NCBI GenBank assembly: GCA_964565195.1 | Contig: CAZMCQ010000005.1 | Coordinates: 30,697 to 94,696, forward strand | Reading direction: 5' to 3' | Source: an uncultured Candidatus Saccharibacteria bacterium | GTDB taxonomy: Bacteria > Patescibacteriota > Doudnabacteria > UBA920 > 2-01-FULL-46-14 | Length of the DNA: 64,000 nucleotides | In this document: piece by piece, positions 44,149 through 64,000 of the stretch | Layout of the letters: every line of letters begins with the position of its first letter | Numbering within the stretch: the stretch's first letter is position 1 | Program-made: the position numbers and the translations under genes | Notes under the pieces: model-generated | Told to the model about the DNA's origin: nothing | The model's database searches: none | The model's input: only the letters and a program-made list of their open reading frames with translations

Positions 44149-45168
44149 ATGCTATTTGCCCGCACCAAAAGCAAATTAGGGATCGATATCGGCACTTCTA
44201 GCATAAAAGTCGTCCAATTAACAAAAGCACAAGAGAAATTTGTTTTGGAAACCTATGGCGTGGTGAGCGTGGCCTTCCCGGGGGGCCTCGCGGAAGGCTT
44301 TGATGCGATTGCCAAGACCGCGGAGATTTTGAAAAGTCTTCTGGCGCGCGCCAAGACCACCACGAAGAAGGTCGTGGCGAGCCTGCCGAACAGCATTGTC
44401 TTTGTCTCGGTCATTGATATGCCGGAAATGTCCGAAAAAGAGCTCAAAGACTCCATTGAATTCGAGGCGAGACGGTATGTGCCGCTGCCGCTCGAGGAGG
44501 TTACGCTGTCCTGGAGCGTACTCAAAGAAGGCGCGCTCGCGAGTCCCAAAGTAAAAGTTCTGCTCACCGCGGTCCCGACCAACGTGATTGATAATTATCT
44601 CAAAATGTTCAAACTCGCCGGCCTTGAACCAATTGCCCTGGAGATTGAATCGCTGGCGCTGATCCGGTCTCTGGTGGGCGCGCGCCGCGAAAGCTTCATC
44701 ATCATTGACATGGGCGCGCGCAGCACTTCTTTGAACCTCGTGGACAAGGGTTTTCTGCGGGTCAGCCGCAACCTCTCGGCCGGCGGCGAGACGATCACCA
44801 ATGCGGTGGCGCAGGGCCTCAAGGTGAGTTTTGCCCGCGCCGAGCAATTTAAGCGCGATCTGGGTTTGTCGGAAAGCGCGTCTGACCAGATCCCCCAGAC
44901 CATACGTCAGACCATTGATGTCATCAAAAGCGAGACTTCGCAACTCATTAATATTTACCAGTCCTCCGGCGAGACCATCGCGGAGATAATCCTGGCCGGT
45001 TCGAGTGCGCGTCTGCCGGGTTTGATCAAGTATTTTTCGGATTTGGGGCCAAAGGTGGTCCTGGGCGATCCGCTGCAGTTTATCAGTTTTGATTCGCGTC
45101 TCAAAAGTAATTTAGCCGAAAGTGCCTTGTCTTTATCTGTGGCCTTGGGCCTCGCCATGCGGGAATAA
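44149..45168 (+). CDS. pilM: Type IV pilus assembly ATPase-like protein PilM
   Basis: Actin-like fold and the N-terminal LGIDIGTSSIKVVQL motif. First gene of a pilMNO-pilB-pilT-pilC locus. Confidence 0.85.
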   Translation: MLFARTKSKLGIDIGTSSIKVVQLTKAQEKFVLETYGVVSVAFPGGLAEGFDAIAKTAEILKSLLARAKTTTKKVVASLPNSIVFVSVIDMPEMSEKELKDSIEFEARRYVPLPLEEVTLSWSVLKEGALASPKVKVLLTAVPTNVIDNYLKMFKLAGLEPIALEIESLALIRSLVGARRESFIIIDMGARSTSLNLVDKGFLRVSRNLSAGGETITNAVAQGLKVSFARAEQFKRDLGLSESASDQIPQTIRQTIDVIKSETSQLINIYQSSGETIAEIILAGSSARLPGLIKYFSDLGPKVVLGDPLQFISFDSRLKSNLAESALSLSVALGLAMRE

Positions 45169-45169
45169 A

Positions 45170-62200: not shown

Positions 62201-64000
62201 TTTTCCACAAGGAGATTAGCGATGCTGTGCCGAAGACTAATGCCTACCCGGCGCCGCCGCCGCGGAAAATTTACCATGACTGGGGGGAGAGCGGCCCGCT
62301 CGGCCCGGCCACGACCAACTCCGGACCGCCTTTTTACCTTACCGAGGAGACCGGCAACCCGGTAGATGATTTCAGCGTGCGCTGGCGGGGCAAGTTTAAG
62401 TTTGATAGCGCCGAGTATCAATTTGCGGCCTGCAGCGACGACGGCATCCGTATCTACGTGGATGGTGAAGCGGCAAGCAACCGCATTCTTGAGGACTGGC
62501 GCCCGCGCGCATGCGATGATCCCTCTGGCAGCAGCGGCCGGGTGACGGCGAACAAAGTCTTGGCCGCGGGCGACCACCAAATTATGGTGGAGTATTTTGA
62601 AAGCAGCGGCCAGGCAGTAATTGATGTTTATTGGGAAAAGGTCACGGTTTTGGCGCCAATTGCTGATCCCACGGCTGCGCCCTTTTGTTCTGGCAGTGAT
62701 TCCAAAGCCACCATCTCCTGGAGCGAGGCCGGCCGTGGCAGCGCTGGCTACTTCGTGGATATAGACAATGATAATAACTGGAACAATGGTTTTTGGAATA
62801 AAAATATTCCGTCAGGAACTTTGTCCACCACTGCGCCGGACGGATTTAACGGCTATAATGGGCCGAGCGGGCCGATGCCGCCCCTGCAAGCCGGGGCAAC
62901 CTACCAGGTCCGCATTTTCTACATTGCCACCGGCGAGCACTCCAGTACCGTAAGTTTCAAGGCGAGCACCTGTACCGGCACCTTTACCATCAACGTCGCG
63001 CCGGCCACGCGCACGATCACCCAGGGCGACGCGACGACCTACAATGTCAATGTTTCCTGCAGCGGCAGCTTCGCGGGTCCGGTGACGAATCTGAACGTAA
63101 CCAATCTGCACACCAACACGAACCCTTCTTTCAATCCGACTTCCATAAACTGCAGCGGCCCGGGGGGCAACTCCACGCTTACCATTACCACCTCGGCCGC
63201 GACGCAAACCGGCACCAAAACCCTGAACGTCAATGGCGACGGGGCCGGCGCGGGCACGCAGACCGGCAATGCGGACCTGACCGTCAATGCTCTCGAGCCG
63301 CCGGAAGAGCCGTGCGTCAACAACTGCACTCCGCCGCCGCCCACGGGCGGGTGCTCCGGAACCAATTGCACCAATCCGCCGCCGGGTTTGGGCGGGCAGC
63401 TCGGCGTCGCGGTAAGCTGCGAGCAGATTCTGTTCGCCTGGCAGGACAGGTCCGATAACGAAGACGGCTTCCATGTCTGGCGCGCGCCGTCGTTTGGCGG
63501 GACGACATTGACTTATGAGGGCCGGACCTATTCGCTGCTTGGCACCAAGGGTGCGAACGTGGAATATCATCTTGATACCACCGCTCTCCCTGACCAGTCC
63601 TATTGGTACGCGGTGACCAGCTACAATGCCGGCGGCGATTCCGCAGCAGATGGCCTGGGCCCGATTTTCAATACCGCTTGCGCGGCAAATCTCTCGCTGT
63701 CCGACAAAGTGATTGATTCCGTGAACGGCAGTCCTTACGTCGTCGGGCAGTCCATCAAAAACGGGGACACTGTGCGGTTCCGCATCATCATCAACAACAG
63801 CGGCAATACGGCGGCCTACGACGTGTATGTGGACGATACCATCTCGAGCAACCTGCAGTACACCGGCAACCCGACGATCCAGCGCGGCTCGGGCTCGGAG
63901 AGCGGCATTTCCGTTTCCCAAAACGGGCAGAATCTGATTTTTGACGCTGGTCGGAACCTCGGCGACAAGGATGCCGACAGCCAGAACTGGCTTGTGCGGT
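59251..64000 (+). CDS. Giant secreted multidomain surface/adhesin-like protein with two PA14 domains, 3'-truncated by the window edge (over 1580 codons in the window)
   Basis: Frame 1 is open from the TAA at 59230..59232 to nt 64000. The supplied ORF track lists no frame-1 + ORF after 59251. N-terminus [34 protein letters not shown] (ATG 59251; alternative TTG 59239 with AGGAAGG 11 nt upstream). PA14-like blocks: [42 protein letters not shown]...[13 protein letters not shown] and [35 protein letters not shown]...[13 protein letters not shown]. Also a Cna-B/SdrD-B-like region, a divergent InlB-B-repeat-like region, an FN3-like region and DUF11/CARDB-like segments. Confidence 0.85.
   Translation, partial: [1583 protein letters not shown]

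Follow-up and report, generated by a model that had tools for sequence, protein, structure and literature searches.

The 64,000-nucleotide (nt) stretch analysed here, which we call the window, is part of contig CAZMCQ010000005.1 from an uncultured bacterium of the candidate phyla radiation (CPR), and the 20 kb that run from position 44,149 to its end carry a type IV pilus (T4P) operon, two small membrane-anchored proteins of family PF27226 (anc1 and anc2), three minus-strand genes for secreted proteins (s360, s158 and s891) and the first part of a giant PA14-domain protein. A preliminary description of this DNA, made from the letters alone, had presented these genes as one functional locus for attachment or host interaction. 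All of the open reading frames (ORFs) that it listed are present, at or within a few bases of where it had placed them. We read their arrangement differently, and with a probability of roughly 0.6, as a chromosomal cell-surface neighbourhood of a CPR bacterium in which separate transcription units lie side by side, their co-location having been inherited within a narrow lineage, and not as a conserved co-regulated island.

The pilus operon and its peculiarities

The pilus genes follow one another on the plus strand. The actin-like assembly protein PilM (44149..45168; PilM_2 PF11104, 1.5e-47), which has orthologs in CPR loci, is followed by PilN (45167..45730; PF05137, 9.6e-6), whose likely start is the ATG at 45167 within an ORF that opens at a GTG at 45122, and by PilO (45733..46338; PF04350, 1e-7). 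After a protein of 114 amino acids (aa; 46342..46686) come the extension ATPase PilB (46698..48446; an MshEN N-terminal domain and T2SSE PF00437, 1.7e-132), a single-domain receiver (48463..48801; Response_reg PF00072, 30.6 bits against a cutoff of 30.2), the retraction ATPase PilT (48798..49886; 362 aa, T2SSE PF00437, 5.7e-37, with a 74% identical ortholog in L004, the L numbers being our labels for comparison loci) and the platform protein PilC (49886..51091; two T2SSF domains, 1.4e-60). Two pilins with the N_methyl domain PF07963, the first with the class III signal GFTLIEL (51124..51624) and the second at 51692..52156, precede the prepilin peptidase and N-methyltransferase PilD (52160..52912; A24_N_bact PF06750 and Peptidase_A24 PF01478) and a GspH-like minor pilin (52935..53510; PF07963; TIGR01708, 5.6e-11) with a 28-aa leader encoded by repeats. 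The best sigma-70-like match, a promoter candidate by consensus match only (44064..44093, plus strand; TTGACA-18-TATATT, 11 of 12 positions, with TG), ends 56 nt 5' of pilM.

The Pfam matches bear out the operon content given in the preliminary description (pilMNO, a small membrane protein, pilB, a pseudo-receiver, pilT, pilC, pilins, pilD and a minor pilin), and its remark that pilQ is missing holds as well: no Secretin domain was found in the operon genes or in a scan of 20 further large ORFs from the window. PilB, PilT, PilC, PilM/N/O, PilD and class III pilins (G|FTLIE) together make this type IVa-like pilus machinery in its monoderm/CPR form. The gene order is matched in more than 20 CPR genomes (tblastn), and the operon is therefore known biology: the standard CPR form of a type IV pilus operon, at a single locus and without a secretin. 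Single-locus T4P clusters without pilQ are widespread in CPR (PMC7143001), and in Saccharibacteria T4P have been tied experimentally to host adhesion (PMC10633639). The clusters of Microgenomates Ch65 (PMC7143001) and of Saccharibacteria (PMC10633639, PMC11623550) have in common with the present one PilM/B/T/C/D, major and minor pilins and the absence of PilQ, whereas the glutamate at the acceptor position of the receiver, the heptamer-expanded leader of the minor pilin and the PF27226 gene that closes the operon set the present cluster apart.

A further difference concerns the number of minor pilins. Here a single one lies 3' of PilD, whereas other CPR clusters have four pilin-like genes at this place; in 11 other CPR genomes the GspH-like pilin is followed by three more pilin-like genes, a gene for a 260-290-aa protein, ligA and gatA. 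The window, L028 and L034 retain only the first, GspH-like pilin 3' of PilD, and no further pilin motif was found in the 64-kb window.

Two small proteins of the operon are conserved parts of the CPR arrangement. The receiver between pilB and pilT is found across CPR pilus operons; in the window its acceptor position, at the end of beta-3 in the motif VMELLL, holds a Glu, with the conserved Ser/Thr and Lys kept. In an alignment with CheY and 14 CPR orthologs the position is Asp in 11 of these and Glu in L004, L014 and L019. Since Glu replaces the acceptor Asp, in the window as in its nearest relative, the label pseudo-receiver given to the protein earlier is right. The 114-aa protein, a component conserved in CPR and specific to them that lies between pilO and pilB, has a membrane helix at its N-terminus and the motif G(R/K)xNPF at its C-terminus. 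Positional homologs of 84-121 aa with the same helix and motif occur in 16 CPR loci, and scans of Pfam (to E 1-10), NCBIfam and PHROGs matched the protein to no family.

The repeat-encoded leader of the minor pilin, also reported in the preliminary description, can be traced at the DNA level to three heptanucleotide tandem arrays (52913..53019; AATTTCT x3.4, AAATCCC-like x8.4 and ATTGGTC x3.7), which occupy the whole junction between the stop of pilD and the codons for the mature N-terminus of the minor pilin, whose start and leader they span. The AAATCCC-like and ATTGGTC arrays are mutually complementary and form a 31-nt imperfect inverted repeat. Where the arrays encode a leader of 28 aa, the leader of the L028 ortholog (74% identical) has 6 aa, MKSQQG. 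A change in the copy number of a 7-nt unit would shift the frame, which makes the arrays a possible site of phase variation; judged from their sequence, they may serve as a slipped-strand on/off switch for the minor pilin and anc1. One Logan contig ends inside the heptamer repeat.

Anchored paralogs, secreted proteins and the giant protein

The predicted pilus transcription unit ends with anc1 (53535..53999, plus strand), which encodes an N-terminally anchored PF27226 protein and starts 24 nt 3' of the minor pilin. A strong hairpin is first seen 3' of anc1 (54022..54052); it is GC-rich, has A-run and T-run flanks, lies between the convergent genes anc1 and s360 and, from these features, looks like a bidirectional terminator. 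The preliminary description had placed anc1 just upstream of a plus-strand surface gene; instead the gene ends the pilus unit and is followed by the hairpin and the convergent genes. The second anchored paralog, anc2 (58749..59264, plus strand; GC content 0.44), shares its last 14 nt, stop included, with the giant gene, from the ATG of the latter onward.

That the two proteins, noted earlier for their shared GFP/GW motifs, are paralogs is supported by BLASTP (25% identity over 83 aa, E 9e-5) and by precomputed Pfam annotation, which assigns both to PF27226 (AF_1845). Scans of NCBIfam, PHROGs and, to E 1-10, a Pfam copy that lacks the PF27226 model gave nothing meaningful for either protein. 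In an alignment of 21 PF27226 members the P-x-x-F-P and W positions behind the GFP/GW label are nearly invariant, and the architecture shared by the family, that is, an N-terminal membrane helix, PxGFP and a beta-alpha-beta domain in which a GW is conserved, is found here. An AlphaFold2 model of anc1 built from this alignment (predicted local distance difference test, pLDDT, 89.6) consists of a membrane helix at residues 5-26, a linker and a compact beta-alpha-beta domain, and its best fold matches in the PDB, all weak (E ~0.03, template modelling score, TM, 0.41-0.46), are DcrB, TiME, PA1624, LpqN and PsbP, which are accessory proteins of the envelope or periplasm. Mog1/PsbP-like proteins such as DcrB, LpqN, TiME and PA1624 are the closest known proteins by these matches and are small membrane-tethered extracytoplasmic domains, but anc1 has no sequence similarity to them, matches their fold weakly and has a transmembrane helix in place of a lipid anchor. 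A search of PDB sequences with the anc-family profile returned nothing meaningful and no link to Mog1/PsbP-like proteins, and a metagenome scan with the anc profile returned two short contigs only. The anc1 protein contains no Cys.

Between the two paralogs lie three genes on the minus strand: s360 (54060..55142; 360 aa), an orphan that forms a singleton cluster, s158 (55269..55745; 158 aa), also an orphan, and s891 (55921..58596; 891 aa). The N-termini of all three are signal-peptide-like, basic and then hydrophobic with an Ala-rich end (AlphaFold places a helix at residues 2-20 of s891), and each gene has its own hairpin 3' of it. Clear housekeeping annotations for these secreted proteins would, in the terms of the preliminary description, have spoken against its reading, and searches of Pfam, NCBIfam, PHROGs and PDB sequences gave none: there was no match in any of the four for s360, none in the first three for s158 and nothing meaningful for the N-terminal region of s891 in Pfam (to E 1-10), NCBIfam or PHROGs, nor for s891 in PDB sequences.

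The largest of the three could be taken further. Behind its signal peptide, s891 has an orphan N-terminal region of ~430 aa and four beta-sandwich units at residues 457-890; in the AlphaFold2 model these residues have a pLDDT above 80, and residues 18-426 one below 50. A word-indexed homolog search returned s891 itself only, and an exhaustive phmmer search against 1.84 billion representatives returned 261 proteins at E <=0.001, all aligned on residues ~450-850; the ~430-aa N-terminal region had no relatives among these representatives. Among the best 40 of the 261, 22 match DUF5719 (PF18986), in combination with LRR, DUF11, CARDB and other surface-protein domains. s891 has no direct DUF5719 match at Pfam E 0.01, and the link is transitive, by way of those 22 of 40 homologs. 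Set beside the DUF5719 multidomain secreted proteins, then, s891 aligns over residues 457-848 to the 261 relatives but lacks a direct Pfam match and has an N-terminal region that finds no counterpart. Foldseek returned generic tandem beta-sandwich proteins only (complement/TEP macroglobulin domains, RbmA and TM1070). The idea that s360 or s158 carries a DUF5719-like module was rejected, as a profile from the s891-module alignment gave no match.

Might these three genes have been inserted recently from a foreign source, as part of a mobile element or what is left of a prophage, between the pilus and giant-protein operons? All three are orphans that form singleton clusters, they run opposite to the genes on either side, and their GC content of 0.58 is above that of the flanking anc1 (0.51) and anc2 (0.44). 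The genome norm, however, as given by rpoB, rpoC, dnaK and uvrA, is a GC content of 0.57 and a GC content at third codon positions (GC3) of ~0.7; the minus-strand genes, with a GC3 of 0.62-0.68, equal it and so give no sign of recent import, and it is the flanks that are the outliers. Additionally, there is no integrase or transposase, no PHROG match and no flanking tRNA or direct repeat, and an s891-like gene occupies the same place in L028. We rejected an insertion on composition and hold it to be highly improbable.

The giant gene (59251..64000, plus strand) runs as an open frame from the ATG at 59251 to the end of the window and encodes more than 1583 aa with a signal-like N-terminus. Its product contains an InlB B-repeat (Flg_new_2), two PA14 domains (PF07691, 6.2e-28), Fn3-like regions and DUF11, so that the giant PA14 protein of the preliminary description is confirmed. 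In the PDB the PA14 domains have significant sequence matches in RsgI3, an RTX adhesin and a Lap adhesin, the resemblance being to adhesins and carbohydrate sensors, and by analogy with these an adhesin or glycan-binding role would be the natural reading. With RTX/Lap-type adhesins and RsgI3 the protein shares these PA14 matches, very large size, Ig-like repeats and an N-terminal signal; it differs from RTX/Lap adhesins in that its CPR host has no outer membrane and that its gene is probably translationally coupled to that of a small anchored PF27226 protein. An RTX/type I secretion signal is not visible because the C-terminus lies outside the window. The giant protein is of a kind to be expected on the surface of a CPR cell.

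The genes anc2 and s891 diverge from an intergenic region of 152 nt (58597..58748; 28% GC) with promoter-like hexamers. The surrounding GC-poor patch (58500-59700; 0.37-0.48 against ~0.57 for the genome) takes in this promoter region, anc2 (GC3 0.43) and the first ~150 codons of the giant gene, and three Logan contigs all break within it.

Linkage in relatives and the reading of the region

Related genomes retain the arrangement in part. In L028 (PilD 75% identical, minor pilin 74%, anc1 60%), the order is pilD, minor pilin, anc, a minus-strand gene for a 160-aa secreted protein and a minus-strand gene for an s891-like protein, the C-terminus of which matches the last s891 module (38% identity, tblastn E 2e-8; module profile 1e-15). 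No s360 was found in L028, and the 160-aa protein, which has the position of s158, was rejected as its ortholog for lack of detectable similarity. In L033/L034, the nearest metagenome-assembled genomes (MAGs; PilD 68%), the pilins, pilD and the minor pilin are followed by a 206/217-aa protein, a 574-aa coiled-coil membrane protein, a minus-strand PaaX-like gene, an anc gene (49% identity), a second PaaX-like gene, a minus-strand gene for a 703-aa secreted protein and a 177-aa anc-like gene that overlaps the gene for a giant PKD protein. The 703-aa protein of L033 is homologous (1e-90) to a 702-aa protein of L031, the gene for which is divergent from that for a giant of 1855 aa with PA14, CARDB and Flg_new_2 domains; this neighbourhood contains a ribosomal-protein/secY operon, dsbA, anc and toxin-antitoxin genes, and there are no pilus genes in the 20 kb viewed around the giant. 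In the distant CPR genomes (n=11), no giant gene lies within ~7 kb of the pilus operon.

The check on synteny that the preliminary description proposed comes out in its favour for the similar order in L028 and L033/L034 and against it on the inserted genes and on the absence of the linkage in 11 or more distant CPR genomes. From these sequence comparisons, anc, a divergent large secreted protein and a giant adhesin appear to be a loose set that travels together in the lineage; that set adjoins the pilus operon over a narrower range, with unrelated genes in between. Two ideas raised by the comparison were dropped: the 702/703-aa proteins of L031/L033 as s891 homologs, since neither hhalign nor BLASTP found any similarity, and what looked by eye like a degenerate HExxH/EGxAxA-type motif. 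Proteins with a PaaX_M domain and an N-terminal hydrophobic segment flank anc in L033 (3052-5214), and a PaaX_M-domain protein also lies 5' of the 702-aa/giant pair in L031 (14181-14768); they may be local regulators.

How much of this co-location is functional? At one extreme, the whole 20 kb would be a single integrated and co-selected island for attachment or host interaction, as first described. It is true that the non-pilus genes all encode exported or surface proteins and that the order is similar in the close relatives L028 and L033/L034, but the genes lie on separate strands with a hairpin for each, the nearest relative has two PaaX-like regulators and a coiled-coil membrane protein inserted among them, and the linkage is missing in 11 or more distant CPR genomes, where ligA and gatA come after the pilus genes. 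Moreover, the giant and its divergent partner stand in L031 with no pilus genes in the 20 kb viewed, s891 and its 702/703-aa positional analogs have no detectable sequence similarity, and s360 is absent from L028. We consider a single island quite unlikely. What stands of the claim of one functional locus is the exported or surface nature of the neighbours and the partial synteny; what does not is its unity, given at least three transcription directions or units, inserted genes and patchy linkage.

At the other extreme, the co-location would have no functional meaning, being a chance adjacency that close relatives share through recent common descent, in a genome that is small, tightly packed and full of genes for surface proteins. 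Conservation confined to relatives with at least ~68% Pil protein identity, content between the conserved anchors that differs in every genome examined and distant CPR genomes without the linkage are all consistent with this explanation. Chance does not account well for the pairing of anc with a giant, which recurs in unrelated contigs, or for L031, where an anc gene lies ~6-9 kb from the pair formed by the 702-aa protein and the PA14 giant with no pilus genes present, a hint of a link among those genes. We regard chance adjacency as possible, though somewhat unlikely.

The recurrent pairing is best seen from the side of PF27226. In 5 of ~11 independent contexts a PF27226 gene lies directly 5' of, and co-oriented with, a gene for a large secreted repeat protein: in the window, where anc2 overlaps the giant PA14 gene; in L033, where the 177-aa anc-like gene overlaps that of the giant PKD protein; in a JGI contig with the order anc-372-161-983 and DUF11/CLIPPER; in L037 with the order anc-412-670; and in L038 (125-4281), where tandem paralogs of 164 and 184 aa are followed by a Cys-rich Ig-like repeat protein of more than 967 aa that has no Pfam match. 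Two other PF27226 genes are directly 3' of a DsbA/thioredoxin-like gene (L031 9216-10513 and L035 7949-9291), and two are 3' of a minor pilin (the window and L028). The giant proteins that adjoin PF27226 genes are Cys-rich. The position after DsbA, taken with these Cys-rich giant neighbours, hints at a link to the oxidative folding of surface proteins, and from the neighbour pattern as a whole we infer for PF27226 proteins a role outside the cytoplasm as accessory factors for exported surface proteins.

Can more be said about what such factors would do? CPR cells have no outer membrane and lack many standard envelope systems. We propose, tentatively and with the odds against the proposal as a whole, that PF27226 is a CPR-centred family of anchored partners dedicated to exported surface structures and that the heptamer arrays switch the minor pilin and anc1. 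Each paralog may mature, hold or tether its own client, anc1 the pilus with its minor pilin and anc2 the PA14 adhesin. Such partners would explain the sites at which PF27226 genes are found, after minor pilins, after DsbA and overlapping the starts of genes for giant Cys-rich repeat proteins. If the link is true, the family offers a handle on how CPR bacteria export and hold very large adhesins.

We return, then, to the reading of the region as a surface neighbourhood of separate units. The first unit would be the pilus operon, without the three further minor pilins usual in CPR and ending in the co-transcribed anc1. The second set would be the three convergent genes, each with its own hairpin, whose products would be exported by the Sec pathway, the largest displaying a four-unit beta-sandwich array. 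The third would be a divergent two-gene operon in which anc2 is translationally coupled to the giant adhesin-type protein. Contact would be made by extension and retraction of the pilus, the giant protein would bind glycans of the partner surface through PA14, and the PF27226 proteins, with a DcrB/PsbP-like domain outside the membrane, would serve as accessory factors for the maturation or retention of pilins and giant repeat proteins. Epibiotic growth of a cultured Patescibacterium requires T4P and adhesins, and by analogy with Saccharibacteria a host-contact role is plausible (PMC10633639).

Several points weigh against this picture. The weak fold matches leave the DcrB/PsbP-like assignment of anc1 tentative, and the remaining PF27226 genes are in unrelated contexts, after pyrH (L036) or beside toxin-antitoxin genes (L030/L031). 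Signal peptides were called only by eye and from AlphaFold helices. The C-terminus of the giant protein, and hence its mode of anchoring, lies beyond the window end at 64000, and as s360, s158 and the N-terminal half of s891 offer no functional clue, a role for them in attachment is a guess.

Why does such a locus matter? In the attached life that CPR bacteria lead on other cells, pili and adhesins are the few genes with a demonstrated essential role (PMC10633639). The locus represents no new kind of machine. What is new here is the lineage-specific orphans and the recurrent pairing of PF27226 with large surface proteins, and it is the PF27226 family, the three lineage-restricted secreted proteins and the repeat-expanded pilin leader that are worth following.

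Genomic setting and host lineage

The pilus locus lies 3' of housekeeping genes of the window that include rpoB, rpoC, leuS, tsaD, bipA, a trxB-like gene and ychF, together with a glmM-like gene, tyrS/trpS-like genes, rnj, uvrC, uvrA, dnaK and dnaJ. The best matches of the window's PilC are in Patescibacteria MAGs, the closest being JAUYKH01, at 70% identity and with the NCBI protein label Candidatus Doudnabacteria, in keeping with the CPR/Patescibacteria host named in the preliminary description. Clustered at 90% identity, the region's proteins are all singletons; they are seen solely in one NCBI contig and in short Logan contigs (SRR12113383-85), which carry s891.

Two observations made elsewhere in the window may be added. 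Genes for tRNA-Ile(GAT) and tRNA-Ala(TGC) lie on the minus strand at 43631-44036, in the order typical of the spacer of an rRNA operon, although no rRNA was detected anywhere in the 64-kb window. At 13214-14269 on the minus strand, next to an Nramp transporter gene, lies the gene for a protein of 351 aa that matches matrixin (peptidase M10) and may be exported.

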